From contig JAPPLY010000056.1 in NCBI GenBank assembly GCA_028819305.1, positions 14,800-78,799 of the forward strand: a stretch of 64,000 nucleotides of DNA, given 5' to 3'. The notes under the pieces were generated by a model. That model was given only the letters and a program-made list of their open reading frames with translations, did no database searches and was not told where the DNA came from. Shown piece after piece: positions 2,274 through 64,000 of this stretch; position 1 is the first letter of the stretch, and each line of letters opens with the position of its first letter. Both the position numbers and the translations under genes were made by a program. Source of the DNA: Bdellovibrionales bacterium (GTDB taxonomy: Bacteria; Bdellovibrionota; Bdellovibrionia; Bdellovibrionales; UBA1609).

Positions 2274-3071
2274 TTAACCAAGAAGATCAGAACGCCAAGC
2301 TAAAGTAAAAATAACAAAATATCTCGGTTTTTTCAAAGCCTGCCAAGCGGCTCTAGCGGTAGCCCCTGTAGTCAATATATCATCCACAAAAATAATTTTC
2401 TTTTTTTGGAAAAAATCCTTATTTATACTGATCTGAGTTGATTCCCGCGTTCCTGCTGCGGAAGAGGAAAACAGGCCCCGGGTGTGTGGTTTTTGTAAGC
2501 TTTTTTTGAGGAAGGAAGGAAACTCGGAGTTTGCCATTTCCAGACCGGAGAGGTCTATATGAAAATGAATTTCTTTTCTTTCCTGTCGGTTTTTTTGTTT
2601 TTGAAAAGCCTTTTTTTCAACAAAATCACCCCTTCTAAGCGGATTAAATAAATGAAGGCCCATTAAACGAGAAAAAGAAAGCGCGAGGCTAAATGCGTGG
2701 TCAGAAGAAGGCTTATAAGAGCGAGTGGGAGCTGGCACTAAAACCGCCTCCAGAGGAATAGGGTACTTTTGAACAATACGATGTACATACTCTAAAATAA
2801 TTTTATTAAAAACATCTCCTGGACCTCCTTTTTTTAAACTTTTTAAAAAAAGCCGAATAAAAAAATCATTTTCTCTGTTCCAATCAAAAAGCCGGATATG
2901 AGTCCAGCCATCCTGTTCGCGAATTATGTCTTCAGGACTTAAATAAAAGCTCCTTAACTTTTTCCAACAATCGGAACATAACCAATAGACAGGAGGCGCG
3001 GTTAAGCGACAAATACAACAGCTTCTAAACCAGTTCCCTAACCTTAATTTATTTTGCCAAAGATTTTTCAT
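2274..3071 (-). CDS. comF: ComF-family phosphoribosyltransferase
   Basis: N-terminal Cys pairs (CCICR...CSDCW) and C-terminal PRTase motif IIFVDDILTTGATA. Confidence 0.7.
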   Translation of the reverse strand: MKNLWQNKLRLGNWFRSCCICRLTAPPVYWLCSDCWKKLRSFYLSPEDIIREQDGWTHIRLFDWNRENDFFIRLFLKSLKKGGPGDVFNKIILEYVHRIVQKYPIPLEAVLVPAPTRSYKPSSDHAFSLALSFSRLMGLHLFNPLRRGDFVEKKAFQKQKNRQERKEIHFHIDLSGLEMANSEFPSFLKKSLQKPHTRGLFSSSAAGTRESTQISINKDFFQKKKIIFVDDILTTGATARAAWQALKKPRYFVIFTLAWRSDLLG

Positions 3072-6446: not shown

Positions 6447-7976
6447 CTACCAGCTGATCGGCTTCTTCACATAAGAGAGTCCATTACAATGAGGACAGGG
6501 TTCACAAAGTGTTTCTAACAAAGAAGAGCGGGTTCTTTTTCTTGTGATCTGAACCACTCCCAATTCCGACATAGGAAAGAGGCGCGTGGAAGAGCGATCT
6601 TTTTGAAATTCCTGGGATAAACATTCCATCACAGCTTGCCGAGATCGTTCCAGCTCCATATCAATAAAATCAATAAAAATGATTCCTCCACAGTTTCTCA
6701 GTCGCATTTGAATGGCGATTTCTTTTGCCGCCTCTAAATTAATTTTTAAAATAGTTTCCTCTGGGTTCTTTTTTCCCATAAAACGTCCTGTATTCACATC
6801 TACAACCACCGCCGCTTCTGTTTCTTCAATAACAAGAAAACCACCAGACTTTAAGTCCACTTTTTTATTCAATAAAAGCCCCAGTTTTGATTCTAAGGAA
6901 TATTGGTTAAAGAGAGATAGCCCCTCCTTCTCTGTGTTGTAAAAAGAAATTTTATGTCTTTCCTTCGGTATTTCCCGATCGACAAATTGTTGAATATGGT
7001 CCCCGAGTTTTTCATCATCCACTAAGACCTTTTCTACATCCTCTGTTAAAAAATCTCTTAACACCTGAGAGGGAAAAGAAACGTCAGACCAAACCAAGCC
7101 GGGAGAGGGGAGAGAGTGGTATTTTTCCCGAACATGATGCCATACGCTTTGTAAGTGTTCCCCATCTTTTATTAAGTCCTCCGGCCGGGCTTCCCTGGCT
7201 CTGGTCCTAATCACAAAAGAGGATTTCTGATTCCATTCTCGGACATAACGAATCAATTCTTCTTTTAACTTTTCATCTTCAATTTGTTTAGAAGCTCCAA
7301 TATAAAAAAGGACCTTAGGTAAATAAACCAAATACGGCCCCGGCAAACTAATTTTATCACTGACCCGCACATTTTTAGTTTTTAAAGGGTCTTTTATGAC
7401 CTGAACCATAAGGGTTTGGCCTTTCTTCAGTCGCTTTAAGCAAGCTTCTCTCCCTCCAGTATCTTGAAATATTTCTCTTTTCGGAGGGTTTTGCTCGGCA
7501 TGCTCCTCAAAAAACTCATGTTTTTTTGCCCCCTTTTCCCGTGCCATCTGTCGTTCTGGCGAACAAAGGTTCCTGCTAAGGTAAAGAAAGGCGGACTTTC
7601 CTGAACCTATATCTACAAAACAAACATTTAAACCTTCTTGTTTTTTTATGACACGAGCTTTATATATAGATCCCACTTGAGAAGGAACATTTAAGCATTC
7701 TAAATGAAAATGAGATAACACTCCTTGTTGTAGTTGAGCAATACGAGTGTAAGAAATACTCTTATTAATTAAAATAAGATTCTTTTTATGTTTTTGAGTT
7801 AATTTGGTTTTTTTCACTTTCTTCCTTATATTGATTTTGTATGATTCCCGCCCCTGGTGAGGACAAACTTTGTGGTTTCTATAAACTTCTTCCCAAGGAC
7901 AAGCAAGTTCGTTCAGAGGGGAAGGACCAGTCCCCTTAAAAACAGGGATTCTGGACTGATTTGATATAAGAGTCAA
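6447..7976 (-). CDS. rng: Ribonuclease E/G family endoribonuclease
   Basis: S1-like domain (GSIYKARV...FVDIG), catalytic core, C-terminal Zn-link-like CPHCNG. The ORF opens at TTG and the first ~65 aa are not RNase G-like, so the true start is uncertain. Confidence 0.8.
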   Translation of the reverse strand: MTLISNQSRIPVFKGTGPSPLNELACPWEEVYRNHKVCPHQGRESYKINIRKKVKKTKLTQKHKKNLILINKSISYTRIAQLQQGVLSHFHLECLNVPSQVGSIYKARVIKKQEGLNVCFVDIGSGKSAFLYLSRNLCSPERQMAREKGAKKHEFFEEHAEQNPPKREIFQDTGGREACLKRLKKGQTLMVQVIKDPLKTKNVRVSDKISLPGPYLVYLPKVLFYIGASKQIEDEKLKEELIRYVREWNQKSSFVIRTRAREARPEDLIKDGEHLQSVWHHVREKYHSLPSPGLVWSDVSFPSQVLRDFLTEDVEKVLVDDEKLGDHIQQFVDREIPKERHKISFYNTEKEGLSLFNQYSLESKLGLLLNKKVDLKSGGFLVIEETEAAVVVDVNTGRFMGKKNPEETILKINLEAAKEIAIQMRLRNCGGIIFIDFIDMELERSRQAVMECLSQEFQKDRSSTRLFPMSELGVVQITRKRTRSSLLETLCEPCPHCNGLSYVKKPISW

Positions 7977-8219
7977 AAAAAACCTTATTTTTAATAAGCG
8001 CTATCATCTACTGTTTTTTTGTCACGCAGAACAAAAAATTATCATCTCTTAGTAAAAATTAAAGAATTATATATAAAGGAAAGGTCTCTAAGTAAATAAA
8101 ATTATTTAATTATTCTTTAAAATGTAAAAAGAAGGAAAAATGTTTCATCTTATACTAGTCGTGTTTGAGTTTTCTTGTTAATTTTCTATTTATCTAAAGG
8201 TTAAAACTCCTGAAAAGTC

Positions 8220-8268
8220 GGAAAAGCTGGTCCCCGTGGAAATGGGGATCAAAGCCTTTGGCTTTGAT
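8220..8268 (+). repeat. Intergenic repeat copy f: 30-mer GGAAAAGCTGGTCCCCGTGGAAATGGGGAT followed by a 9-bp-stem hairpin
   Basis: 27/30 identical to the reverse complement of 44901-44930; hairpin ATCAAAGCC-TTT-GGCTTTGAT at 8248-8268; lies 48 nt upstream of the pccB-like start and in the same sense. Confidence 0.7.
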
Positions 8269-8315
8269 GCAGGCAAAACACCTTTTTCGCTTAAACACTG
8301 TAAAAAGGACATTTC

Positions 8316-15491: not shown

Positions 15492-17704
15492 GAAAAAGGC
15501 ATGATAAATATATATTCCTTTTTCCCCTTTTAAGAGAGCTTGCTTTCTTTAAGAAAAAGACCTATATAAGTAAGGATATTATGTTAACCTTTAGTATGAA
15601 AAATAGACCCATCCGATGGTTCCTCACCTTCCTAAAAACCCGGCTTTCTGGTTATCTTCTTGTTTTCGCCGCAGGAAAGAGAGAGGGTCTGAGGACGACC
15701 CCGTTTTCTACACCGATTCGGTATAAATGTTTTTTTTGTTTTTGTTTTCTTTTTCTTTCTTCTTGCACACTGCTCTCTAAAAAACACAAAGTGATACCTA
15801 TAAAAGAAAAAAAAATTTCTTCTACCAAAAAAAAAGAAACAAACACAGCAGAGTATCAATTAGTAAATAAAGCTATTAAAAACACAGCTTCCTCTTTTTT
15901 AACAAAAAAACAAATAAATCAATTACAGAAAATATTAAAAAAGAAAAAAAGTTTTGTTTCAAAAGATTTAATCAAAATGATTTTAGGCCGCCATTTCTTA
16001 AAAAAGAAGGCTTATAAAAAAGCCCTCTTTTATTATTCCCAAATACAGGTCTCTCCCTGGAAAATAAAAGCTCTTTTAAAACAAGCTCAAATTTACTATA
16101 AAATAAATAAGCTAAAAAAGGCTCTCACATTGATTCGGGCTATAAGAAAAGAAAAGGACCCTCCCCCTGACTTATTATTAGAGTCTCAACTACTAAAATT
16201 ATCTTTGGTTTTAAAAGAAAAAAACTCAAGCTCAAAAGAAATATTAGAAACTTATTGTTATATATTAAGTTATGAAACTAAAAAAAACCCTATTTACAGA
16301 GAACGAGCTAAGCAAATCATTTTTAAAATGAGTGAAAAAGATTTACTCGATCTTCATTCAGAAGATTTCATTGAACCTGTAAAAGATCTGATCTTCTTTC
16401 GCGCCGGAAAAATTTTATTTTTTAGAGAAAACTTTCGACAAGCTTATACTTTCTTTAAAAAATTTCTACGATCTTCTAAAGAGAGTTTCCTGGAAGAAAA
16501 AGCTCTTAAATATATTCAAGCTATTGAGTCAAGAAAAAAGGTAAATCGGAAACGGCTGGGAGCTATTTTACCTCTCAGCGGTCCTTCTGCAAATATAGGA
16601 AGGAGAAGTCTTAAGGGTTTAAAAATGGGATTAGGGTTACACACAGTTGACAATAGCCCTTTCGAATTAGTGGTTTTAGATAGTCAAGGACAAGCTGATA
16701 AAACAAAAAAAGCGGTTCAAATGCTTATCACAAAACATCATGTTATAGCTGTTATAGGTGGCGTATTGAGCAAAACGGCTTCTGTTTTAGCGCAAGAAGC
16801 TCAAAATTTTGGAGTGCCAACTTTACTTTTGTCACAAAAATCAAATCTAACCAAAAGGGGCCACTACATTTTTCAAAACGGCCTGACAGCGATTTTATTT
16901 GCTCATCAATTAACAGATTATTTAATTAATGAACTTCATTTCCGACGCTTTGCCATTTTATATCCTAATGACCCTTTTGGAGTGGATTATGCCAATGCCT
17001 TCTGGGATGCGGTAGAAAAAAAAGGAGGTAAAATCACAGGGGCGCAATTCTATAAACCAGGAGAAACCGACTTTAATGGCCCTATTAGAAGACTAACAGG
17101 TATCTATTATTTAGAAGATCGTATAAAAGAATATATGGATAAATTAAAAAATTGGTATATAAAAAAGTCTTATTTATCTAAAAGCCGGTCCTCGCCCCCG
17201 GAAAATGTTTTACCCCCTATAGTGGACTTTGAAGTCTTGTTTGTTCCCGACTCCATTAAAACACTGAGTCTTATAGCTCCTCATATTACTTATAACGATA
17301 TAAAAAATATCACATTAGCCGGACCATCTTTATGGAACCAAGAAAAAAAATTAAAAAAATATTCAAAATATGTTGATTATATCATTTTTGCCGACCCGGG
17401 CCTAAATACGAAACATTTTAAACAAACCGATTTTTACAAAAAGTTCCTTCGCACTTTTAACTATAAACCAGGACTTTTTGAAATCCTCTCTTATGAGTCT
17501 GCTCTCCTTCTTCGCCAAATGATTGCCAGTGGTGCCGACTCACGACATGAATTAAGAGATAAACTAAAAGATATTAAGAAATTTTATGGACCAATGGGAG
17601 AAATAGTAATTTCTAATGAAAGAGAGTTTATACGCCCTATGCCGATCTTTAAAATGGAAAAAGCTGTTTTATCACCTGTCACCACCCCCTCAAGCTCCCT
17701 ATGA
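15488..17704 (+). CDS. TPR plus type-1 periplasmic-binding-fold lipoprotein (LivK/LpoA-like); start uncertain
   Basis: Lipobox FLSSC about 95 aa into the ORF, TPR-like helical repeats, then a Leu/Ile/Val-binding-protein-like domain (LGAILPLSGPSANIG...VIAVIGGV). Confidence 0.6.
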   Translation: MRKRHDKYIFLFPLLRELAFFKKKTYISKDIMLTFSMKNRPIRWFLTFLKTRLSGYLLVFAAGKREGLRTTPFSTPIRYKCFFCFCFLFLSSCTLLSKKHKVIPIKEKKISSTKKKETNTAEYQLVNKAIKNTASSFLTKKQINQLQKILKKKKSFVSKDLIKMILGRHFLKKKAYKKALFYYSQIQVSPWKIKALLKQAQIYYKINKLKKALTLIRAIRKEKDPPPDLLLESQLLKLSLVLKEKNSSSKEILETYCYILSYETKKNPIYRERAKQIIFKMSEKDLLDLHSEDFIEPVKDLIFFRAGKILFFRENFRQAYTFFKKFLRSSKESFLEEKALKYIQAIESRKKVNRKRLGAILPLSGPSANIGRRSLKGLKMGLGLHTVDNSPFELVVLDSQGQADKTKKAVQMLITKHHVIAVIGGVLSKTASVLAQEAQNFGVPTLLLSQKSNLTKRGHYIFQNGLTAILFAHQLTDYLINELHFRRFAILYPNDPFGVDYANAFWDAVEKKGGKITGAQFYKPGETDFNGPIRRLTGIYYLEDRIKEYMDKLKNWYIKKSYLSKSRSSPPENVLPPIVDFEVLFVPDSIKTLSLIAPHITYNDIKNITLAGPSLWNQEKKLKKYSKYVDYIIFADPGLNTKHFKQTDFYKKFLRTFNYKPGLFEILSYESALLLRQMIASGADSRHELRDKLKDIKKFYGPMGEIVISNEREFIRPMPIFKMEKAVLSPVTTPSSSL

Positions 17705-26090: not shown

Positions 26091-26103
26091 AACATTTTTC
26101 CCT

Positions 26104-26187
26104 ATACCTATTAGGTATTATTGTTTCTATAACTTTCCGGTTCTTTCCTCCAGGCAACCAAGCTTTTACAATCAAAAATTTTTAAAC
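26104..26187 (-). repeat. Intercistronic repeat copy a (nuoK-nuoL spacer)
   Basis: ATACCTA-T-TAGGTAT hairpin plus an AAGCTT-containing tail; about 70 percent identical (59 of 84 aligned columns) to 29518-29599. Confidence 0.75.
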
Positions 26188-26499
26188 AGGGTCGGTATAT
26201 TTAGAATCTTCTAAAACAAAAAGATCCATCTGTGTCCACCTGCGACTGATAAGCACAATTAAGGCTAAACCCACTCCCGCTTCCGCCGCCGAAATAGTCA
26301 TTACAAAAAAAGCCGCCACTTGAGCCGAAAGTAAATTATAAAACTGACTAAAAGAGACAAAAGAAAGATTAACCGCATTCAACATCAACTCTATGCTCAT
26401 AAGTATAATCAAGAGATTCCGGCGCGCTAGCACACCAAAAAAACCAATAACAAACAACAAGAGAGAAACTATTAAAAAGTGATTTAATTCTATTTCCAT
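26182..26499 (-). CDS. nuoK: NADH-quinone oxidoreductase subunit K
   Basis: 105-aa three-TM ND4L-like ORF (SIELMLNAVNL, AAAEAGVGLA). Confidence 0.88.
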   Translation of the reverse strand: MEIELNHFLIVSLLLFVIGFFGVLARRNLLIILMSIELMLNAVNLSFVSFSQFYNLLSAQVAAFFVMTISAAEAGVGLALIVLISRRWTQMDLFVLEDSKYTDPV

Positions 26500-28176: not shown

Positions 28177-28242
28177 ATTTTTTTCTTCCTTCGTGGGAGA
28201 TTCATTATCCTCTTCCTATTTTTTCCCTTCTCCTTAAAGACA

Positions 28243-28275
28243 ATACCCCTCGGGTATTATTTTTCCGGAGTTTTC
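28243..28275 (-). repeat. Intercistronic repeat copy b (nuoA-nuoH spacer)
   Basis: ATACCC-CTC-GGGTAT hairpin followed by TATTTTTCCGGAG; 19/20 match to the hairpin core of 44815-44834. Confidence 0.65.
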
Positions 28276-29499: not shown

Positions 29500-29517
29500 A
29501 AACTCTAGTCCTTTTTT

Positions 29518-29599
29518 ATACCCAGAGGGTATTATTTTTTCGTAACTTCTCGGCCTTTTTCCCTTGTTAGCCAAGCTTTTAAAACTGAAATTTTCAAAC
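29518..29599 (-). repeat. Intercistronic repeat copy c (sdhA-sdhB spacer)
   Basis: ATACCC-AGA-GGGTAT hairpin plus an AAGCTT tail; about 70 percent identical to 26104-26187. Confidence 0.75.
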
Positions 29600-29644
29600 A
29601 CGAGCAGTATAATTCATCACACAAACTTGTAAAACATTTTTTTC

Positions 29645-35242: not shown

Positions 35243-36176
35243 TGAAAACTCTTTTTCTTCCCACTCTTATTTTAAGTTTGTGGGTATTTAGTGGCTGCTC
35301 TTTTTTTAATAAAAATCCGGTCGTTTTACAAATCAACTCAGACAAATTAACGAGTCGTCAGTTTGCAAAACGTTTAGCTCAAAAAATACACTCTTTAAAC
35401 ATTCAAGAGGTCAAAAACCAAGAACTGATAGAAAACCTTAAAAGACAGCTTGTTACAGACTTAATTATGGAAACTCTCATTAAGCAATGGGCCAAATCCC
35501 ATTCGATTTCTATATCCAAAAAAGAGCTTCATCAAGAATTACAAAAAATAAAAAGCAAATATCCTGATAAAGAAGCATTCGAATGGTATTTAAAAAGAAA
35601 AAAAACAAAAGTAGAGGAATGGACAGAACATATAAAAAATAACTTGCTTAGCCAAAAAGTTATGCAAAAAATGGGTTCTAAAACCCCCCCCCCTCTTTAA
35701 AAGAAGTAAAAGAATATTACCAAAATCACCTCCCCCTTTTTACACAAAAACCCCGTGTTCTGATTTATCACATTTTTCACAAACAAAAAGAAGTGCTTAT
35801 TAAAATAGAAGAAAGTTTAAAACAAGAAAAGAATTTAGTAAAAATAGCTAAAAAATTCATCAAAGACCCTCAAATGCTCAAACCCCAATGGGTGGAAAAA
35901 GGAGTTTTAGAAATATTTGACCAAGCTCTTTATCTAAAAAAAAAGGAGATCAGTCCTATCTGGTCCAGCCCCTACGCTCACCACATTATTCAAGTCTTAG
36001 ATAAAAAACCGAAGCAACAAATACCTTTTGAAAAAGTGAAACAGTCTATTAGCGGGACATTGCTGAAACAAAGGCAAAAAGCTCTCTTTATAAAATGGCT
36101 AGATGAACAAAGCAAAAAAGGGGTTATATTAAAAAATGAAGCCGCTTTAGAAAAAATAAAAGTGGATTTACTGTAG
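35242..36176 (+). pseudogene. PpiC/PrsA-like lipoprotein gene split by a frameshift at a C10 tract
   Basis: ORF 35242-35700 (lipobox VFSGC) and ORF 35793-36176 are one gene. The second frame is already open from 35682 and reads SLKEVKEYYQNH...; the frames meet inside C10 at 35684-35693, and C11 or C8 would restore a ~311-aa protein. Confidence 0.7.
35684..35693 (+). repeat. Homopolymeric C10 tract
   Basis: Counted directly in the sequence; it is the site of the frame change. Confidence 0.95.
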
Positions 36177-36441: not shown

Positions 36442-37368
36442 ATGAAATATTTATCTCTTTTTTTATTCTCTTTTTGTTACCTTACATCTGCTCAAACCAT
36501 TGAAAAAACCCTGGCTATTGTAGAAACAGAAATGATAAGTCTTATGGATTTAAAAGAAGCAAAAAAAAGATTAAACAGAGGCTTTTTTGAAGATTCCCTC
36601 TTGCTCACTTTATTTGAACCATCTCAACTAAAAAAAACAGAGGCGGCTTTTCTAAACTTTCTTATTTATGAAAAAGTTTTAGATCTTCTTGTAGAACAAG
36701 CTGAGTTAAAAATAGCAGACGCTCACTTAAAGCAAGAAATAAACAACAGAAGAAAAAAAAGAGGTTTATCGAAAAAAGCTTTTAGCCGATACTTAGTTAA
36801 AAACCACTTTACTTCTTCCTCTTATAAAGAGTTCCTAAAAAAAGACCTCTTAAGAAGACTCTTTGTTCAAAGAGAAATCGCAGAAAAAATAAGGTTTTCC
36901 GATCAAGACTTAAACGAATACGCCCGCCAAACACAAGGAACAGCTCTTTTTACCTCATTTGAATATGAACTCACCTACCTGTTTTTTCCAAAAACAAATA
37001 GAGGAAAAACACGCTCAAAGGACATTTCTCATCTTATTTTAAAAGAAGCTTCTTTTTTTGATAAATGGGAACCAAAAGAAAAAGGAGAAAAAAAGAAAGT
37101 TTTAAAAAAAATAAAGTTATCTAGCCTGCATCCTACTATTAAAAGGGCTATAAAAAACCTTTCTACGGGACAAGTGTCTCCTGTACTTTCCCTTCCCTCC
37201 GGGTATCATATCTTCAAAGTTGTCTGGAAAACCCCTGTTATTACTGATAAAAACAAAAAACGGAAAGAGAAATTATTTGTACTCTTATTTGAAGCTCTGT
37301 TTAAAAAAAGGTTTAAGCTTTGGCTTGAAGAAAAAAAGAACAAAACCTTTATTCAAATCAACTCATGA
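36442..37368 (+). CDS. surA: SurA-like periplasmic chaperone/PPIase
   Basis: Signal peptide, SurA-N-like start (LAIVETEMISLMDL), parvulin-like C-terminus (GQVSPVLSLPSGYHIFKV); conserved surA-pdxA linkage. Confidence 0.7.
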   Translation: MKYLSLFLFSFCYLTSAQTIEKTLAIVETEMISLMDLKEAKKRLNRGFFEDSLLLTLFEPSQLKKTEAAFLNFLIYEKVLDLLVEQAELKIADAHLKQEINNRRKKRGLSKKAFSRYLVKNHFTSSSYKEFLKKDLLRRLFVQREIAEKIRFSDQDLNEYARQTQGTALFTSFEYELTYLFFPKTNRGKTRSKDISHLILKEASFFDKWEPKEKGEKKKVLKKIKLSSLHPTIKRAIKNLSTGQVSPVLSLPSGYHIFKVVWKTPVITDKNKKRKEKLFVLLFEALFKKRFKLWLEEKKNKTFIQINS

Positions 37369-38312
37369 AAACAATTCATATTACAACAGGGGACCCTGAT
37401 GGAGTGGGATTGGAGGTAAGCCTCAAAGCCCTAAAAAAAATAGGACCCCAAAGAGGCATACAGTTTACCTTATGGAGATCAAACCAAGCTCCTAGAGAAC
37501 TGTTAAGTTTAACGGATGGCCTCTTTTTCCGTATAAATCCCTTAAAACAAAAAAACTTAGAAAAGTATAAAAAAGAAAATATTTTTCTAGATATACCTGG
37601 TTCTTCTACACCCACAAAGTGGGTAGCCAGGGCTGCCCAAAGTTGTCTTAAAAATAAAAATACGGAAGCTCTGGTAACAGGTCCTCTTTCTAAAACACAA
37701 ATGCAAAAAGAACTTTTTCCAGAAAAAGGTCATACACATTTATTAAAAAAATTAAGTGAAACAGAGCATGTATTTATGACTTTCCTAGGAAAGTGCTTCC
37801 ATGTCACTCTTCTAACAGACCATGAACCTCTAAAAAAAATAAACTGGACTAAAAACAGTTTAAATAAATGTATTGCGCTTTGTCTTCAACTTCAGCAATC
37901 TTGTTCTCTTAAAGCCAAAAATAAGAAAATAGCTCTTCTGGGCCTCAATCCCCATGCCGGTGAAGAAGGTTTATTAGGAAAAGAGGAGTTTTCCTTAAAA
38001 AAAGAAATCCAAAAATGGAATAACCAAGTAGAAGGTCCTTTGGTGCCAGATGTCGCTTTCTTAAAAAAAAATCAAAAGAAATATTTTCTTTATATTTGCT
38101 TGTACCACGATCAAGGTTTAATTCCTTTTAAAATGATACATGAAAGAGACAGCTTCCAGTTCAGTTTAGGTTTACCTTTCATTAGAACCAGTGTCAGTCA
38201 TGGCACGGCTAAAGATATTTTTGGAAAAAACAAAGCAAACTCTCAATCTATGGAAAAAGCTCTACTTTGGACTATCCGTTCTCTACGAAAAAACAAAACC
38301 CTTTGGGTTTAG
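37365..38312 (+). CDS. pdxA: 4-hydroxythreonine-4-phosphate dehydrogenase
   Basis: ITTGDPDGVG N-terminus, LNPHAGE, RTSVSHGTA motifs; ATGA overlap with surA. Confidence 0.88.
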   Translation: MKTIHITTGDPDGVGLEVSLKALKKIGPQRGIQFTLWRSNQAPRELLSLTDGLFFRINPLKQKNLEKYKKENIFLDIPGSSTPTKWVARAAQSCLKNKNTEALVTGPLSKTQMQKELFPEKGHTHLLKKLSETEHVFMTFLGKCFHVTLLTDHEPLKKINWTKNSLNKCIALCLQLQQSCSLKAKNKKIALLGLNPHAGEEGLLGKEEFSLKKEIQKWNNQVEGPLVPDVAFLKKNQKKYFLYICLYHDQGLIPFKMIHERDSFQFSLGLPFIRTSVSHGTAKDIFGKNKANSQSMEKALLWTIRSLRKNKTLWV

Positions 38313-38319
38313 TATGAGA

Positions 38320-38371
38320 TAAGTAGAACCATAGAATTTACCGGAGTTTACCAAACAAAACCCTTTGGGTT
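38320..38371 (+). repeat. 52-bp repeat, left copy (pdxA-pmm spacer)
   Basis: Exact reverse complement of 40309-40360, checked base by base; imperfect extension back to ~38301; its 3' 19 nt (38353-38371) repeat 38291-38309 exactly. Confidence 0.95.
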
Positions 38372-38400
38372 AAAGGGCCTATAAAAGCGAGAAAAAGTAT

Positions 38401-39915
38401 ATGATAAAATGGAATGAAAAAATTTTTAGAAAAAATGATATTAGAGGAATATACAAAAAAGACTTTGATCTAGGCTTTGTAAAAGTGTTGGCTTTTTCAC
38501 TTATAGAGCTTTATGTTCAGGGTCAGAAAAAAAGAAAATTCTCTCCACCTGCCCCCGTTATCGCTGTGGGCTATGACTGCCGCCTAAGCAGTCCTGAAAT
38601 CACTCAACATCTAATTGATTCCCTCATTTTAGCAGGATCAGAAGTACGTTTTTTAGGGATGGCGCCCTCTCCTGTTTGCTTGTTTGCTTCTTACTATTTT
38701 AAAGACATAAAAGCGTCTATTATGGTCACAGCCAGTCACAACCCCCCTTCTTTTAATGGATTCAAAATAGTTTTAAATAAAGAAAGTGTTTGTGATAAAA
38801 AAATTTTAAAACTAAAAAAAATAATGCAGGCACTTGCCTCTTTACCAACTATACCGAACCAATATAAAAAAAGGGGGGAAGTTATTCCGTTTGATATAAA
38901 GCCAGCTTATATCTCTTTTTATCAGAAAAAAAGCTCCCTTTTTACAAAAACTCTCCTCGCCCCCCCCGCATCCCTACCTATAAAAAGCATAGCTATTGAT
39001 TGCGGAAATGGAGCCAGCGGCCCTATAGCTCAAAAAGTATTTAATACTCTTAAACTCCCTATAAAAATTCATTGGCTTTACACGAAGCCCGATGGACGAT
39101 TCCCTCATCATCACCCCGATCCCTCTTTAGAAGAAAACCTAAAAGACCTACAAAAAACAATAAAAGAAAAAAACTGCGAGTTCGGAGCCGCTCTGGACGG
39201 AGATGGGGATCGCTTAGTCATCATAGAAAACAAAGGAAATATTTTACATGGAGACGAACTTATGTCTATTTTTATCTCCGATATCTTATACCGAACTGAT
39301 ACAGATGCACAAACAAAGACAGGGATTTTAAAAAAACCTGTTTCCATTGTGGCAGATGTAAAATGCGCGGATTGGTTTTTTTATTTTCTTAGAAAAAAAA
39401 ATATTCGAAGTATCATGTGGAAATCAGGACATAGTCTTATACGACAAAAAACAATAAAAGAAAAAGCTCTCTTCGGAGGAGAGCTAAGTGGTCATTTTTT
39501 CTTCCTAGATGATTTCTTTCCTATAGATGACGGCCTCTATAGTCTTCTGCGATTAATACACATTTGTTTATCCCGAAAAAAATCTCTAAACGAACTCATG
39601 ATAAAAACAAACAGCACGGAAACAAAGGAGATCCGCTTACCAATAGAAAATAGGTCTTTAGCTCAAAAACACATTGAAAGCTTAAAAAAATATTACAACC
39701 AACCGGAAAAAAAATCCAAGGGAGTATTTTCTTTTATTGATGGAGTTCGAGTCAGCTTTTCAGATCAAGCTTGGGGTTTAGCCCGCCTGTCTAATACCCA
39801 AAATGAATGGACTTTACGCTTTGGAGGAAAAAACAAAGTAACTTTACAAAAAATACAAAATGATTTTTACCGCTTACTTCATATTTTCCCCTGCCAAGAA
39901 AAGGTAAAAAATTAG
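38401..39915 (+). CDS. Phosphomannomutase/phosphoglucomutase
   Basis: Active-site loop TASHNPPSFNGFK and metal site DGDGDR. Confidence 0.88.
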   Translation: MIKWNEKIFRKNDIRGIYKKDFDLGFVKVLAFSLIELYVQGQKKRKFSPPAPVIAVGYDCRLSSPEITQHLIDSLILAGSEVRFLGMAPSPVCLFASYYFKDIKASIMVTASHNPPSFNGFKIVLNKESVCDKKILKLKKIMQALASLPTIPNQYKKRGEVIPFDIKPAYISFYQKKSSLFTKTLLAPPASLPIKSIAIDCGNGASGPIAQKVFNTLKLPIKIHWLYTKPDGRFPHHHPDPSLEENLKDLQKTIKEKNCEFGAALDGDGDRLVIIENKGNILHGDELMSIFISDILYRTDTDAQTKTGILKKPVSIVADVKCADWFFYFLRKKNIRSIMWKSGHSLIRQKTIKEKALFGGELSGHFFFLDDFFPIDDGLYSLLRLIHICLSRKKSLNELMIKTNSTETKEIRLPIENRSLAQKHIESLKKYYNQPEKKSKGVFSFIDGVRVSFSDQAWGLARLSNTQNEWTLRFGGKNKVTLQKIQNDFYRLLHIFPCQEKVKN

Positions 39916-40247
39916 ATTTTTCCAGCAATAATCATAGCAACAGCAAATGAGAAAATAACAAAAGACTCAATTAAAGCTAATACTATAATCATGGGAATAA
40001 ACATAATTTTTTGGGATTGAGGGTTACGGGCAATCCCCTCCATGGCTGCCGCTCCAACTCGTCCTTGCCCTAAAGCCCCACCAAAAGCAGCTACAGCAAT
40101 AGCCAAGCCGGCGGCTAAAGCATAAAGTCCTCTATTTTCTCCACTTGTTGTTGTTACCTGGGCCATTTCTTCTGCATAAACCCACCAAGGGGAAGTTAAA
40201 ATAACTCCTATGGCTGTTAAGTAAATTCCGTGAAAAAGTTTTTTCAT
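39912..40247 (-). CDS. atpE: F-type ATP synthase subunit c with N-terminal hydrophobic extension
   Basis: C-terminal ~80 aa is a c-subunit hairpin (GGALGQGR...ARNPQ loop...LIESF carboxylate helix); its stop codon overlaps the pmm stop (TTAG). Confidence 0.85.
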   Translation of the reverse strand: MKKLFHGIYLTAIGVILTSPWWVYAEEMAQVTTTSGENRGLYALAAGLAIAVAAFGGALGQGRVGAAAMEGIARNPQSQKIMFIPMIIVLALIESFVIFSFAVAMIIAGKI

Positions 40248-40308
40248 TCTTTCGTCCTCCTCTGCATATTATCTATTTCTATTGCCACAAATAACATATA
40301 AGCTCCCA

Positions 40309-40360
40309 AACCCAAAGGGTTTTGTTTGGTAAACTCCGGTAAATTCTATGGTTCTACTTA
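40309..40360 (-). repeat. 52-bp repeat, right copy (atpB-atpE spacer)
   Basis: Exact reverse complement of 38320-38371; imperfect extension to ~40379. Confidence 0.95.
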
Positions 40361-40405
40361 CCCCATACCAAACCCAAGAAATTTAATCCTTAAGTAAATG
40401 AAAAA

Positions 40406-41095
40406 TCAATGCTCATGTGACAAAGCAATGCTGATATACACCATACTTAAAATAGTAAAAATAAAAGCTTGCATAGTACAAACAAAAAAGCCCAAAAAGT
40501 AGAAAGCAACAGGTATAACGACAGGAGCCAAATCTAAAAAAATGGATAGCACAGTATGATCCCCGACCATATTACCATAGAGCCTAAGCCCTAAACTTAA
40601 AGGGCGTACAAGGTGAGAGATAAGTTCAATCACAAACATTAAAGGGGCCAGAAACAAAACAGGCCCCATAAGCTGCTTTAAATAAGACAAACCATGCTCT
40701 TTAAACCCATAAATATTATAGACTAAAAAGGAAAAAACGCCTAAAGCCAATGTTGTATTAACATTACTCGTAGCCGCCCCCATACCAGGAACCAGCCCCA
40801 ACAAATTATTAAACCAAATAAATATAAAAAGGGTGGAAAAAAAAGGAATAAATTTTCGTCCTTGTGAACCTACCACTAAGTCAGACAAAGATGTAATAAT
40901 AGAAACAAAGTTTTCAAAAAAAGCTTTTATAGAAAAATGATCTGACGGAATAAGCGCGTTTTCCGATTTTTTCAAAGCCCTTCGGGATAAAAAAGTTAAT
41001 CCCAATAAAATAAAACAAATCAGAAGTTTATTAGCTATATGCAAATGTTCCGACCCTAAAAAAGGCAAAAGATTTAACCACTCAAAATGAATCAT
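40406..41095 (-). CDS. atpB: F-type ATP synthase subunit a
   Basis: 229-aa polytopic ORF with the conserved Arg motif LSLGLRLYGNM. Confidence 0.88.
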   Translation of the reverse strand: MIHFEWLNLLPFLGSEHLHIANKLLICFILLGLTFLSRRALKKSENALIPSDHFSIKAFFENFVSIITSLSDLVVGSQGRKFIPFFSTLFIFIWFNNLLGLVPGMGAATSNVNTTLALGVFSFLVYNIYGFKEHGLSYLKQLMGPVLFLAPLMFVIELISHLVRPLSLGLRLYGNMVGDHTVLSIFLDLAPVVIPVAFYFLGFFVCTMQAFIFTILSMVYISIALSHEH

Positions 41096-44797: not shown

Positions 44798-44814
44798 ATA
44801 GTGGTTTTCTCCTT

Positions 44815-44847
44815 ATACCCCTCGGATATTATCCCCGTTTCCGCAGG
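44815..44847 (-). repeat. Intergenic repeat copy d (gyrB-gyrA spacer, proximal to gyrA)
   Basis: ATACCCCTCGGATATTATCCCCGTTTCCGCAGG; related to copies b and e. Confidence 0.65.
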
Positions 44848-44887: not shown

Positions 44888-44930
44888 CTCTGTGGGTATT
44901 ATCCCCATTTCCACGGGAGCAAGCTTTTCC
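44888..44930 (-). repeat. Intergenic repeat copy e (gyrB-gyrA spacer)
   Basis: GGGTATTATCCCCATTTCCACGGGAGCAAGCTTTTCC; 27/30 identical to the reverse complement of 8220-8249. Confidence 0.7.
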
Positions 44931-45006
44931 ATGGCTTTTTGTCTTCTTAAGTTTCATCTCTAAAAACCAGAAACTTTTAAACAGGATCGGTATTAAAAAC
45001 CGCCCA

Positions 45007-48606
<3,600 letters not shown>

Positions 48607-48607
<1 letters not shown>

Positions 48608-49815
48608 CACATCTTCATAGGCATAACGACGCAAAAGCTATGTTTTTCTTTTTCCCCTTTTAATACAGGATATATAACACAAGCTCGCTCTTTGCCTCCA
48701 AAAGTTATAAAAGCCTTCTTCGTTCCCAAAGAAGAAAGAGCTTCCAAAATATATCTGGCATTAAAACGAACCTTCAAATCATCCCCCTTTTTTCTCACAC
48801 AGGCTACCTCATCTTGAGCCTTACCTAAGTCCGGGTTTTCGGACTCCATTTGGATTTTTTTTTCTTTTATCTCAAAGTTAACTCCTTTAAAACGCGTGCT
48901 AGACAACAAAGACACCCTTCTTAGAACCTGACTAAACTGACTTGTATCCACTTCTACAGAAACAGAGCTGCTTTTTGGTATAAAAGGCCGATAGGTAGGA
49001 TACCCCCCCTCCACCAATTTGACACTTAAAATAGCGGATTTATAACAAAATAAAATGCGCGGAGGCTGCACATCTATTTCCACTCTCTCCTCATCTGAAG
49101 CTTGAGAAATAAGCTTTTTTATTTCCTGCACTCCTTTTTTAGATATAATCACCCCTTCCTCTAAAGATTCTTTACAAGGATATTCTGCTAAAGCCAAACG
49201 GTGTCCATCCGTGGCTACAAATCGAAAATAAAGGGGATTTTTTTTTACCTCCTCCTCCTTTGTTTCTCCCTTCTTTGTTTTTTCCTCCGAGCTTTTCTTC
49301 TCTGAGCGAATAGATTCGGTAGTTTCAAAAAAGATTCCTGTTAGATGGTAACGAGTTTCATCTACAGACGCACAATACACTGTGTTCTCTATTAAATATT
49401 TTAATGTCTCTACAGTCACAGAAAAAGAGTTATGCATCTTAAAAGGGGGGAAAGCTGGAAAATCACGTGGTCGTAAACTCAATAAATGAAATACAGAAGC
49501 TCCTTGTTTTAATTTTATCTTCTTATCCTCTTGTTCTTTTAACTCAACTATTCCCTCTGGAAGTTCTTTTAGAATCTCATAGAGAGTTTGCGCATCTATA
49601 ACTGTTTTTCCGGCCTTTTCTACTTTTACAGGAATTTCACTTTGTAAACTGTTATCTTGATCTGTTGCCTGCACACAAAGATATTTATTTTCTCGTGTGC
49701 TAATAAGAATTTTAGATAAAATAGGGACAATAACTCGTTTCTCAATGAGGCTGTTGGCTTGAGAAACAAGCTCAAAAAAAAGAGACCGTTTAACTTGAAT
49801 TTTTAATCGAGACAT
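48607..49815 (-). CDS. dnaN: DNA polymerase III beta sliding clamp
   Basis: 402-aa three-domain clamp pattern in the dnaA-dnaN-recF-gyrB order; contains a Lys/Glu-rich insertion. Confidence 0.88.
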
Positions 49816-49899
49816 ATTGAATCAGACTCTTAGAGGAAAAAAATTATAAAAAAAGCAACGACTATTAAATATAAATATTATAATAGCAGTAGTAGGCTT

Positions 49900-49996
49900 T
49901 GTTGATAACAAATAATTAATAAATAAGCACTTAAAATCATAAAAAAAACGATATAACAAAATGAGTAAAATAAGGATGTGGAAAAAATGTTGATAA
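49900..49996. other. Candidate oriC segment: three DnaA-box-like 9-mers in the AT-rich dnaA-dnaN spacer
   Basis: TGTTGATAA at 49900-49908 and 49988-49996, TGTGGAAAA at 49977-49985; each is one mismatch from TGTGGATAA. Confidence 0.45.
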
Positions 49997-50026
49997 GTAA
50001 AAAAAGAAAAAGAAAGACCTGTTTTT

Positions 50027-51448
50027 TTAGAGGTTTTTAACAGGAAAGATTTTTTTGTGGATAAGTTTTCTTAACTCTTTGAGATCACTTGTTATTTTTG
50101 GCTTTTTCTTTTCGATTACTTTTAAACTGTGTAATATAGTGCTGTGGTTTCTATTTCCAAAAAGATACCCTAGTTCTTTTAAGGATAAGTTTAAGTCTTT
50201 TCTAGCCAGGTAAATAGCGATATTTCGAGCATAGACAATATGTTGCGCTCGAGAAGAAGATTTTAGCTCAGATGCTTTGATGTGGAAATAGGCACAAACT
50301 TCTTTTAGAACAAGACTGAAGTTAGAATTTTTGGAAAAAGAGGGGGAATTTGCTGTGAGAGGAGAAGGAAGGGAGGGGATTTCCTTACAAAAAAGGTGTT
50401 GAACAACCTCTAAGCACAGGGCTTTATTTTGTAAATCACAAAACATTTTCACTTTATTTAAATGTCCTTCTATTTCTCTAATGGAGTTTGTGGGAATATG
50501 AGATATGTAGGAAAGAACCTCTTCAGGAAGGCCGGTTTGCCAATTTAGGGCCTTACTTTTTATAATGGCTTTTTTAGTATCTTTATCCGGAGTTTGGATA
50601 TCTGCTATGACTCCTCCTTCAAAGCGAGTTTTGATTCTATTTTTTAAGCCTTTAATATCTTTTGGTTTTTGATCGCTAGCTAAAACCAGCTGACACTTTG
50701 CTGATTTTAAACTTTCAAAGGTATGGAAAAATTCGTCTTGGATACTTTCCCCTTTCCCTAGGATTTGAATATCATCTAATAAGAGCACTTGAATATTTTT
50801 TCTGTATTTCTGACGAAACATCTCCATTTCATTTTTGCGAATATGATTGATACAATCATTGAAAAATCGTTCTGCAGGGAGATAGAGCACTTTTAAATGT
50901 GGTTTTTCTTTTTCAAGACGATTTCCAATAGCGTGCAGTAAATGTGTCTTTCCGTGTCCAGAAGGGCCATAGATAAATAAAGGATTAGAGTTATTATTAA
51001 AAGGTCTTTCAGCAATGCTTTTAGCTAAAGAATAGGCAAAAGAATTGCTAGAACCTTGTATAAAAGAGGAAAAGGTCCATTGTGGATAAAAAGTGCTGTT
51101 TTTTGTTATCTTTTTATAATTTTTATGAGGAGGCTTAAAAAAAAAAGGGGGGGGGTCTTTCAAGATCTTATTTGATAAGATGGGGGTCTGTTTTTGTATA
51201 TCAACAGCTGGGAAGGCGCCCTCTTTGTTTTTTATTTGTGTTTGAATGAAAAACAGGTGTTTTTGTAAAATTTCCTGGTGAAAAGAAGAAGGGACTTTAA
51301 GAGTAAAGTGTTTTTTTCCCTCGAGAGCCTGGCTCTCCAGGGTTACCGTATCTAAAACAGATTTAAGTAGTTTTTCTTGAAGTGTTTTCTGTAATGTGTC
51401 TTTTATCTGATTCCAAAGATGCTGTTCTGACAAAAGGGCCTCCATCAA
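50027..51448 (-). CDS. dnaA: Chromosomal replication initiator DnaA
   Basis: AAA+ Walker A GPSGHGKTHLL; C-terminal DnaA-box-binding domain (FGNRNHSTILHS). Confidence 0.93.
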   Translation of the reverse strand: MMEALLSEQHLWNQIKDTLQKTLQEKLLKSVLDTVTLESQALEGKKHFTLKVPSSFHQEILQKHLFFIQTQIKNKEGAFPAVDIQKQTPILSNKILKDPPPFFFKPPHKNYKKITKNSTFYPQWTFSSFIQGSSNSFAYSLAKSIAERPFNNNSNPLFIYGPSGHGKTHLLHAIGNRLEKEKPHLKVLYLPAERFFNDCINHIRKNEMEMFRQKYRKNIQVLLLDDIQILGKGESIQDEFFHTFESLKSAKCQLVLASDQKPKDIKGLKNRIKTRFEGGVIADIQTPDKDTKKAIIKSKALNWQTGLPEEVLSYISHIPTNSIREIEGHLNKVKMFCDLQNKALCLEVVQHLFCKEIPSLPSPLTANSPSFSKNSNFSLVLKEVCAYFHIKASELKSSSRAQHIVYARNIAIYLARKDLNLSLKELGYLFGNRNHSTILHSLKVIEKKKPKITSDLKELRKLIHKKIFPVKNL

Positions 51449-51495
51449 GTTTTATTTAGGGCATAAAAAGTCATAAAGCTATCATAAACCTCTGC

Positions 51496-51525
51496 TTGAC
51501 GAGAAGAGCCAAAACATGCTTTTAT
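51496..51525 (+). promoter_or_regulatory. Possible rpmH promoter
   Basis: TTGACG at 51496-51501, 18-nt spacer, TGc-TTTTAT extended -10 at 51517-51525; by eye only. Confidence 0.3.
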
Positions 51526-56310: not shown

Positions 56311-56348
56311 AGCTACGAGGAGAATAATTTATTAGTAAATGTATCCTT

Positions 56349-56516
56349 CCTTCAGGAAAACAGATTTGCCTCTATATGGGGCTTTGCCTCTCGGGACGGC
56401 CCTTGTCTTCCTTAGTAGGAAGCCAATAGCCTTGGACCCCAACCGGCAAACTGTTTTCCTGTAAGGACATTTATACAGGAAGGCAAATTATTGCTTTCCT
56501 GTCCCGCGAAAGCGGG
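56349..56516 (+). repeat. Nested imperfect inverted repeats and hairpins (structured non-coding segment)
   Basis: Arms 56349-56370 and 56445-56466 pair over ~21 bp with two 1-nt bulges; 12-bp-stem hairpin 56475-56502 (one mismatch, loop ATTA); CCCGC-GAAA-GCGGG hairpin 56503-56516. Confidence 0.75.
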
Positions 56517-63355: not shown

Positions 63356-64000
63356 ATGAAGTACTTTTTAGTCTTTTTTTATCTTTTGTTTTTTTATTAT
63401 TTAGCAAATGCAGGAGAAATTCATAAAGCTGCTGAAAAAGGAGATATTAAGAAAGTATCTTCTTTCTTGAAGGTAGGAATTGATCCTGATTTGGTAAATG
63501 AAAATGGCGCAACACCTTTAAACTTTGCGATTCACGGTGGAAATCTGAAGATTGCTTCACTATTAATAAAGCATGGAGCGAAAGTAAATAATAACGAGAA
63601 ACTCCCCCCTTTAATTCAAGCTAGTGCGTTGGGTCACTTAGAGTTTGTTTCACTTCTGTTAAAATATGGAGCAAATGTTAACACTAAAATTAAAGGTTCC
63701 AATGGTACTGCTCTACATTCAAGTGTGCTTAGTGAATCGAAACTTGAATATCAAATCAAAGAACTTCGTAGTAAGGGCATGAAAGTAAGATCAAAAGAAG
63801 TTACTTTACTCTTGCTTAAAAATGGAGCAAATGTCAATGCTAAAAATAAGAATGGTGTAACTCCTCTGTATTTCGTACTCTCTGCAGAGATTGCTACACT
63901 TCTACTTAAGTATGGAGCTAGAGCGAGTGTTAATGTTAAAACTAAAGAAGGAGACAGGAACCGAACTCATTTTTCCCTCTTGTTGACAATGATTTTGAGA
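63356..64000 (+). CDS. Secreted ankyrin-repeat protein (3' end beyond the window)
   Basis: Not in the ORF track (no stop in the window). Signal peptide MKYFLVFFYLLFFYYLANA, then repeated ankyrin units (G.TPL..A...G.....LL.KHGA.VN). Confidence 0.8.
   Translation, partial: MKYFLVFFYLLFFYYLANAGEIHKAAEKGDIKKVSSFLKVGIDPDLVNENGATPLNFAIHGGNLKIASLLIKHGAKVNNNEKLPPLIQASALGHLEFVSLLLKYGANVNTKIKGSNGTALHSSVLSESKLEYQIKELRSKGMKVRSKEVTLLLLKNGANVNAKNKNGVTPLYFVLSAEIATLLLKYGARASVNVKTKEGDRNRTHFSLLLTMILR

Follow-up and report, generated by a model that had tools for sequence, protein, structure and literature searches.

Two inverted copies of a short, hairpin-bounded intergenic repeat beside pmm and atpE in an uncultured Bdellovibrionales bacterium

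Results

The repeat pair and its genes

The DNA analysed here (the window) is a stretch of 64,000 nucleotides from contig JAPPLY010000056.1 (positions 14,800 to 78,799, forward strand) of the Bdellovibrionales bacterium assembly GCA_028819305.1, and the element in question is a short repeat that lies once before the pmm gene and once, inverted, before atpE. On the plus strand a surA-like gene is followed by pdxA (37365..38312; Pfam PF04166, E 9e-62), whose 3' end enters the left copy of the repeat, and by pmm (38401..39915; Pfam PGM_PMM_I-III), encoding a phosphomannomutase/phosphoglucomutase with the conserved N-terminus MKW/MIKWNEKIF. On the opposite strand lie atpE (39912..40247; F0 subunit c, 111 aa; Pfam PF00137), atpB (40406..41095; F0 subunit a; Pfam PF00119), which is upstream of the right copy, a gene for a 60-aa membrane protein, a TPR gene, gyrA, gyrB, recF, dnaN and dnaA. 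The pmm and atpE genes are convergent and overlap by 4 nt, the pmm stop codon (39913-39915) overlapping that of atpE (39912-39914), and no terminator-like site was found between them in the regional terminator scan; both points had been made in the initial annotation of this DNA, and the coordinates and the scan bear them out. Since pdxA and pmm on the one side, and atpB and atpE on the other, are co-directional, each copy of the repeat is in sense orientation between two co-directional genes.

The left copy (38291..38385, plus strand) occupies the pdxA-pmm spacer and consists of a first hairpin, a body, a second hairpin and a short 3' flank; the right copy (40295..40389, minus strand) occupies the atpB-atpE spacer. 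Base comparison showed that the core of the left arm, 38320..38371 (+), is the exact reverse complement of 40309..40360, with 0/52 mismatches. When a 51-nt pattern of this core was searched in the window, it matched twice with 0 mismatches, at 38321-38371 (+) and 40309-40359 (-), and no match was expected (100 shuffles); the perfect 52-bp inverted repeat reported initially is thus confirmed, as are its distances of 29 nt to the pmm ATG (38401) and 61 nt to the atpE ATG (40247). An imperfect extension had been described as well. Its 5' side stands, but a further 12 nt on the 3' side (38372-38383) had been overlooked, and the ungapped inverted repeat amounts to 81 nt at 90% identity (38303-38383 / 40297-40377); these arms are the longest inverted repeat of the window. 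Against a covariance model of the unit (R1), the left copy scored 99.9 bits (E 6e-23; nhmmer E 1e-22) and the right copy 102.2 bits (E 1.5e-23). With Rfam 15, no gathering-score match was obtained in the whole window, and at E<=5 nothing overlapped either copy within 38200-40500. The 9-mer CCGGAGTTT, said earlier to be a core in common with other intergenic repeats, is indeed enriched (5 occurrences against 0.28 expected), but the three other sites (inside dnaA, antisense in a nuo spacer, and in the 56.2-56.7-kb spacer) have no extended similarity to the unit, and the 9-mer was rejected as a link between the unit and other repeats of the window.

A simple possibility is that the repeat, or its orientation, was made by the metagenome assembler. 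The window lies within European Nucleotide Archive (ENA) scaffold ROBB21-1_SAMN13943215_METAG-scaffold_641, which comes from a short-read metagenome (run SRR10996925) and whose prefix may point to a study of sponges; the species is from one sample, and PdxA, Pmm, AtpE and AtpB each fall into a 90% cluster with one member, so that no population comparison is offered by them. However, when the same run was assembled independently in Logan, one contig of 1,997 nt corresponded exactly to 38342-40338; it breaks off 30 nt (k-1) into either arm, which is the behaviour expected of a k=31 graph at a true repeat. PdxA with its element-derived tail is recorded from Logan too, the diverged flanks allow ordinary reads to cross the 52-nt core, and the orientation matches the synteny of relatives. 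The repeat is therefore real, and the chance of an artefact is practically negligible.

Anatomy of the unit

Five units, from this organism and a relative, align end to end and follow one plan: a boundary hairpin AAACCC-TTT-GGGTTT, a body of ~46 nt with its own stem-loop, and the hairpin again, with a period of 62 nt. In the alignment the order is GGGTTT, a variable stretch, TAAGT, a loop with CATAGAWTTTAC, AGTTTRCCAAAYAAAA and CCC-WTT-GGGTTT. The AACCC-TTT-GGGTT hairpin of the initial annotation is present, the sequence AACCCTTTGGGTT being found three times in the window. In the left copy, hairpin 1 (38296..38310, +) codes for the last pdxA codons (..T L W V) and is directly followed by the TAG stop codon (38310-38312), while hairpin 2 is at 38358..38372 (+; mirror 40308-40322), with 96.7% of cells paired and one C-G to G·U change. 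Between them, the RNAalifold sense consensus places a body stem-loop in which GATAAGTA pairs with AATTTACC around the loop CATAGAAT (38318..38342, +; mirror 40338-40362, -). Hairpin 1 of the right copy is degenerate (AAATTT-CTT-GGGTTT). At three loci hairpin 1 lies on or beside the upstream stop codon. The unit also contains a 10-nt-phased direct repeat, TTTACC-N4-TTTACC.

The terminal 19 nt of the left core recur exactly at the pdxA end (38291-38309 = 38353-38371, 62-nt spacing), and this repeat, exact on recheck, had been read as a duplication at an insertion site. That reading does not hold. The 62-nt period of the units equals the spacing of the direct repeat and recurs in a tandem array in a relative, which indicates that the direct repeat is the boundary hairpin of the unit and not a target-site duplication. 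The 19 nt consist of 8 nt of native pdxA (AAACAAAA, present in the related locus L006 too) plus the boundary hairpin, and when the filled site of the window was set beside the empty sites of the related loci L005 and L006, the second 19-nt copy proved to lie within the element, with a further 14 copied nucleotides after it. A CRISPR-like array was likewise rejected, the 'spacers' between hairpins being homologous to one another.

Other copies of the unit

The copy counts given here cover 98,988 nt of source sequence (~35 kb beyond the window) and ~22 kb of a relative that carries the family. In a scan of GTDB genomes, a collection without the source metagenome-assembled genome (MAG), an exact 24-nt pattern of the unit was found only on a 2.08-Mb contig of the organism of locus L006, at two places: before atpE, and between a vWA (BatA-like) gene and a lolE-like permease gene. 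At the latter place (L010), two units stand head to tail with one hairpin in common. The source itself contains a third, diverged copy (L021 11956-12063; R1 40 bits, E 6e-8), which is a mosaic with its 5' half replaced by an unrelated CCCCCGGGGAAACAGGG module, and its own vWA-lolE spacer (L018) retains, directly after the vWA stop codon, a remnant AACCTTCAAGGGTTTAGTTTATTTAAGTAGGAC corresponding to the first ~33 nt of the unit. No unit sequence was found at the vWA-lolE site of the L005 genome. The source total in ~99 kb is two intact copies, one diverged copy and one remnant, and at 4/5 loci the copies are co-directional with both flanking genes. In the JGI metagenomes a degenerate 22-nt pattern gave six matches, all of them chance matches with no similarity beyond the pattern. 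One transposase-like gene, of PF04754 (Transposase_31), was seen among the source fragments, in L018. It can be seen that the presence of the unit is patchy, that its copies are arrayed, truncated or mosaic, and that it is not a private module of pmm and atpE.

A sister family of ~95 nt, ending in ATACCC-N3-GGGTAT, was found at 29515-29603 and 26103-26214 of the window, at L018 17453-17566 and at L021 ~16090-16172; one of the window copies separates sdhA from sdhB, and the other is in a spacer between open reading frames (ORFs) in the nuo region. In one copy of the family the hairpin is changed to a compensatory CCT/AGG form, and weak matches to R1 were obtained, so these sequences may be distant kin of the pmm/atpE unit. 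Their folds, with 18 pairs in sense against 12 in antisense, do not discriminate between the strands.

Orthologous loci and the origin of the left copy

The loci compared were L005 (Pmm 80% identical), L006/L007 (73%) and L008/L009 (71%), and gene order and orientation are identical to the window in four related loci. The comparison of orthologous spacers that had been suggested as a check was run on these loci. The pdxA-pmm unit is absent from the junctions of L005, L006 and L008/L009, that is, from three related lineages with identical synteny: pdxA and pmm overlap in L005, and the spacers of 39 nt (L006) and 88 nt (L008) are unrelated to the unit. In the atpB-atpE spacer, by contrast, L006 holds a diverged orthologous whole unit (R1 83 bits), and L005 and L008 show faint similarity to the unit at most. 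Because it is absent from all three related lineages, the pdxA-pmm copy is, as judged from these spacers, a gain in this lineage only; because a diverged orthologue exists in L006, the atpB-atpE copy is, by the same comparison, the older of the two.

The gain changed the genes beside it. The PdxA proteins of relatives agree as far as ..LLWxIxS and differ in their tails beyond, and the tail of the window PdxA, ..KNKTLWV, together with the stop codon, is read from the first hairpin of the repeat. The gained copy thus set pdxA and pmm 88 nt apart and now provides the last codons and the stop of pdxA. At the left junction the native pdxA sequence AAACAAAA (8 nt, in L006 too) coincides with the A-run that precedes the hairpin of the unit. 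Since these 8 nt are common to the native pdxA end and the unit, it is suggested that the junction arose through microhomology-guided illegitimate recombination or template switching, and not by transposition.

The identity of the two copies is uneven, with 0/52 mismatches in the core and 8/29 in the flanks of the 81-nt arm (Fisher p=1.3e-4), or 18/43 outside the core over the full model length. The L006 orthologous copy is identical to the right copy at 38/52 core positions (73%). Neither uniform decay after a single duplication nor strong purifying selection on the core fits these figures. A perfect core within diverged flanks, while the orthologous copy is only 73% identical, instead points to recent copying or gene conversion between copies 1.9 kb apart, not to selection for a common regulator. 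The simplest reading would be that an older copy was renewed by a recent conversion tract, or that a very recent copy was laid over an older one. The initial annotation raised three alternatives; the dispersed family, the absence of the left copy in relatives and the uneven identity support the second, a mobile repeat that was copied or gene-converted recently.

Two further observations were made in these spacers. A ~50-nt sequence GTTTTCYTGTTRATTTTCTATTTATYTARAGGTTAAAA lies upstream of a carboxyltransferase gene in the window (8168-8220) and recurs in L005, the closest relative, at 7812-7922, which is the atpB-atpE spacer where the window has the repeat unit. In L006, an extra palindromic insertion of ~150 nt (CTTCAGGAGAGAA...TTCTCTCCTGAAG; 8140-8300) is present in the atpB-atpE spacer.

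RNA structure of the unit

For the five units, the sense consensus fold (RNAalifold) has 17 pairs at -8.9 kcal/mol and comprises the boundary hairpin, the body stem and a closing helix, while the antisense consensus is a 6-pair hairpin only (-4.2 kcal/mol). In a three-hairpin model 86% of cells are paired and 5 pairs are changed on both sides, values equalled by 1-14/500 shuffles; when the partners were slid, pairing was <=58%. Within the body stem 3/8 pairs show changes on both sides, and the stem is kept in L006, where a 20-nt insertion falls within its loop. The alignment contains many G·U cells and one A·C cell only, and the degenerate hairpin 1 of the right copy (AAAUUU-CUU-GGGUUU) can still close in the sense RNA, but not in the antisense one, by means of three U·G pairs. 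The compensatory and G·U changes lend weak support to RNA structure on the sense strand. Small ORFs in the unit showed no conservation.

Promoter and terminator signals

The unit might instead be a portable promoter or 5'-leader module, bearing a promoter or an activator site such as TTTACC-N4-TTTACC, so that its copying gave pmm an atpE-like control. Both copies have the same sense and stand near the start codons (29 and 61 nt), the loop CATAGAWTTTAC is conserved in 5/6 units, and the pair fits the definition of a putative mobile promoter (PMC3488235). Promoter-like hexamers can be picked out, namely TTGGTA-17-TAGAAT in the right copy (9/12), TTAGTA-17-TAGAAT in the left copy and TTGAAA-16-TAAATT at the homologous place in L006. 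However, sigma-70-like matches are rarer in the region than in shuffles (6 found against 11.5 expected), the only such match inside the unit scores 9/12, and the hexamers of the left copy and of both L010 units reach <=8/12. The -10-like hexamer of L006 lies inside the lineage-specific 20-nt insertion, the homologous CATAGA having become CATACG. Furthermore, pmm overlaps or abuts pdxA in relatives, so a promoter of its own is unneeded, and one family member is directed away from any gene start. A better-conserved atpE candidate (TTGRGA-17-TGTGRCAAT) lies 3' of the copied core and was not copied to pmm. In the window it reads TTGGGA, 17 nt, TG-T-GGCAAT (40281..40309, minus strand, just 3' of the core; a consensus match only); it is weak here and better in L006 (TTGAGA-17-GACAAT with TG), and GTTATTTGTGRCAATA is conserved in the spacer alignment. 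Of the shared promoter or leader first proposed for pmm and atpE, therefore, the position close to both starts stands, but the in-unit match is 9/12 and its -10 element is not conserved in the L006 orthologue. We consider this explanation unlikely; on sequence grounds, the unit is probably not a promoter.

In the atpE leader 3' of the repeat (40245-40295, minus strand) there is a 17-codon upstream ORF (uORF), outside the repeat, whose TGA overlaps the atpE ATG (ATGA). Its peptide is not conserved: the short uORFs of relatives differ from it, with ends that coincide with the atpE start or fall shortly ahead of it. The GTTATTTGTGRCAATA stretch is conserved as DNA.

Secondly, the arms might act through their antisense faces, as terminators or insulators that halt read-through from the convergent pmm and atpE genes. 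The region has nine terminator-like sites where 4.5 were expected, among them one on the plus strand at 40308-40322 with the tail TGTTTGGT, and three on the minus strand at 38380-38358, 38371-38359 and 38310-38296 (tail TGTTTTTT). The antisense combination of hairpin and T-run is present in L010 too, and the antisense face of the sister family has a hairpin with TATTTTTT. In sense orientation, no hairpin of the unit passed the scan for intrinsic terminators; only antisense faces did, with stems of 5-6 pairs. Nevertheless, these stems are weak, with 3 G-C pairs, and they could act only after the polymerase had passed the whole opposite gene. The neighbours in the vWA-lolE and atpB-atpE contexts all run in the same direction, leaving nothing to terminate; relatives without the left copy keep the convergent arrangement, and pairing in the sense strand accounts equally well for the A-run ahead of each hairpin. 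Termination as the role of the unit is thus quite improbable, and antisense terminator activity is possible as a side effect for the convergent pair.

Thirdly, the inverted arrangement itself might be functional, either through RecA-mediated inversion of the 1.94-kb pmm-atpE segment or through a double-stranded RNA (dsRNA) stem serving as a target for RNase III. The arms are 52 bp of perfect, inverted identity, and the genes between them converge with overlapping stops and no intervening terminator. Tens of base pairs of identity can permit low-frequency homologous recombination. On the other hand, all four related loci show the same order and orientation, and since three of them have no left arm, the arrangement predates the repeat and no inversion has been fixed; an inversion would also part atpE from atpB. 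As for dsRNA, convergent read-through would already pair >300 nt of opposite mRNA, to which the repeat adds little, and on the read-through strand each arm starts with a terminator-like hairpin and T-run. No inverted pairs were found at the other loci of the family. From the arrangement of these sequences, either function would appear highly improbable.

Other features of the window

Several further repeats were noted in the window. A second inverted repeat of 39 nt (92%) has one arm at each of two sites, 1509-1547 (lolA-mreB spacer) and 2522-2560; the latter arm is read in frame inside a comF-like ORF (2274-3071; ..IDLSGLEMANSEF..). A third repeat set, with CCCGTGGAAATGGGG / GGRTATTATCCCCRTTTCC, occurs at 8220-8256, 44894-44930, 44812-44835 and 28240-28270; gyrA is preceded by two of these copies and the carboxyltransferase gene (8316) by one, and the remaining copy is in the nuoH-nuoA spacer. 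A dispersed intergenic repeat, found in the 550-nt spacer after trmE and with a CCCGCGAAAGCGGGG hairpin, links 56317-56514 of the window with L018 8700-8881 (84% identity over 129 nt and over a further 55 nt).

With regard to the genes, AtpE has an N-terminal extension of ~35 residues (MKKLFHGIYLTAIGVILTSPWWVYAEE...) before the usual subunit-c hairpin, and this is kept in relatives (110-116 aa). A poly-C tract at 35684-35693 differs in length between the window (10 C) and the ENA copy of the scaffold (L001; 11 C). It lies inside the surA-like gene, given as 311 aa by ENA, so that the window version is frameshifted; the difference reflects either a phase-variable tract or a consensus error. Within ~45000-51500 of the window, cumulative GC skew turns from falling to rising near 50 kb, by dnaA (50027-51448), dnaN, recF, gyrB and gyrA, and because of this turn beside dnaA the window probably spans the replication origin. 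An ankyrin-repeat gene is present at the window end (63547-63939), and just past it (L022 14985-20489) there are three tandem paralogues of ~800 aa with a Peptidase_S74 domain, 85-93% identical in DNA.

Discussion

The unit was compared with four known classes of short repeats. Repetitive extragenic palindromic (REP) sequences and bacterial interspersed mosaic elements (BIMEs) of enterobacteria and pseudomonads are short intergenic palindromes, often intra-operonic and transcribed, whose RNA hairpins protect upstream mRNA; REPs near a stop codon can also influence the upstream cistron. The present unit is likewise a short palindromic intergenic repeat within operons, with hairpin 1 at or near the upstream stop at three loci. 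Unlike REPs and BIMEs, it has no GT(A/G)G head, its hairpin of 6 bp is much shorter, its copy number is very low, and a conserved non-palindromic body lies between the hairpins. REPINs go with a cognate RAYT gene (Y1 transposase) in the genome. Where REP/REPIN palindromes are imperfect, 20-40 nt long, with a conserved GT(A/G)G head and tens to hundreds of copies, the hairpin occurs three times in 64 kb and the 24-nt pattern twice in the relative.

Neisserial intergenic mosaic elements (NIMEs) come closer in architecture. In these, the 20-bp dRS3 palindrome ATTCCC-N8-GGGAAT bounds bodies of 50-150 bp, the units are arrayed with arrays that vary between relatives, and the bodies form several sequence families and mosaics (PMC1797815). 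Similarly, our unit has a 15-nt palindrome around a body of ~46 nt, is arrayed in tandem in a relative, is patchy in its occurrence and includes one mosaic copy whose 5' half is foreign; its array varies, from two tandem units in L010 to a remnant in the source (L018) and none in L020. It differs from NIMEs in that its palindrome has another sequence than dRS3, with a 3-nt loop in place of the 8-nt centre; in that 100 kb contain only a few copies, whereas dRS3 numbers in the hundreds per genome; and in that it has no link to surface-antigen genes or phage integration, an unrelated host and no known recombinase. The G·U pairs of its sense strand suggest an RNA role, which to our knowledge has not been proposed for NIMEs. 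Apart from the repeat unit, the relative has, at L010 4600-4700, five tandem 20-nt units GGGCTTTCGCGGGAATGACA whose palindrome fits dRS3 ATTCCC-N8-GGGAAT.

Like miniature inverted-repeat transposable elements (MITEs) and Correia elements, the unit is small and non-coding, has inverted-repeat ends, stands upstream of genes and is present or absent between close relatives. However, its ends are one self-complementary hairpin, the same 15-nt palindrome and thus trivially inverted, and not long terminal inverted repeats; it has no target-site duplication, its head-to-tail arrays have one hairpin in common, and no parent insertion sequence is known, none having been seen in the ~99 kb of source sequence. 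Finally, putative mobile promoters are defined as sequences of >50 nt with >=80% identity upstream of non-homologous genes with non-homologous upstream genes, and two-member near-identical families were the commonest in the survey of Matus-Garcia, Nijveen and van Passel (2012; PMC3488235). The repeat pair (81 nt at 90%, with pmm and atpE downstream and pdxA and atpB upstream) agrees with this definition; the class is a positional one only, both genes are intra-operonic and not at the start of transcription units, and the comparative evidence speaks against promoter activity. As no defining sequence feature of REP, NIME or MITE is found in the unit, it is, by its sequence, a new family of a familiar kind, and its architecture resembles the palindrome-spacer-palindrome mosaics of other bacteria.

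Taken together, we favour, with some reserve, the reading that each arm is a copy of the same unit, and that this unit belongs to a low-copy family of intergenic repeats, lineage-restricted, in uncultured Bdellovibrionales; it would act through hairpins between cistrons or have no effect. Together, the sense-strand fold and the sense orientation at 4/5 loci speak for a REP/BIME-like module of transcribed hairpins between cistrons. A number of points weigh against this. The L021 copy is antisense to its neighbouring genes and has no body stem. The 24-nt pattern occurs only twice in the genome of the relative, so the family is small, and no transposase, RAYT or recombinase linked to it was found in the MAG fragments read. 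The reading base (~99 kb of source, ~22 kb of the relative) is itself small, which limits any statistics on copy number and orientation. The structural support comes from five sequences, two of them nearly identical, and the model was derived from these same sequences, which inflates its controls; the predicted fold of the left copy is no more stable than that of shuffled sequence (z = -0.24), and the conserved loop CATAGAWTTTAC and the phased TTTACC-N4-TTTACC equally fit a DNA-binding site.

If the preferred reading is right, the unit would be transcribed inside a polycistronic mRNA, most copies being intra-operonic and sense, and would fold into two or three hairpins in the intercistronic spacer. 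We hold this, and what follows from it, with low to moderate confidence: the hairpins may act in the manner of REP/BIME hairpins, as a barrier to 3'-exonucleases and a decoupler of neighbouring cistrons, or alternatively they may have no effect. A far bolder proposal, to which we give only a small chance, is that the unit and the sister family of sdh and nuo represent a new class of mobile structured intercistronic RNA modules that spread among operon spacers and set the output ratios of cistrons. If that were true, such modules would tune, for example, subunit c to a high level relative to subunit a, or sdhB relative to sdhA, and the copy in the pdxA/pmm junction would have rewired the expression of pmm.

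The repeat family is previously undescribed and belongs to a poorly known lineage of uncultured Bdellovibrionales. In practical terms, repeats of the pmm/atpE kind split short-read assemblies, as happened here in the Logan one. The locus offers a local, dated case of a short structured repeat copied into a new operon junction, in which the copying reshaped the C-terminus and the stop codon of one gene and parted two genes that once abutted. If the signs of a sense RNA hold genome-wide, the unit would be a candidate cis-acting RNA motif of respiratory-chain operons; otherwise, it would be an ordinary dispersed repeat.

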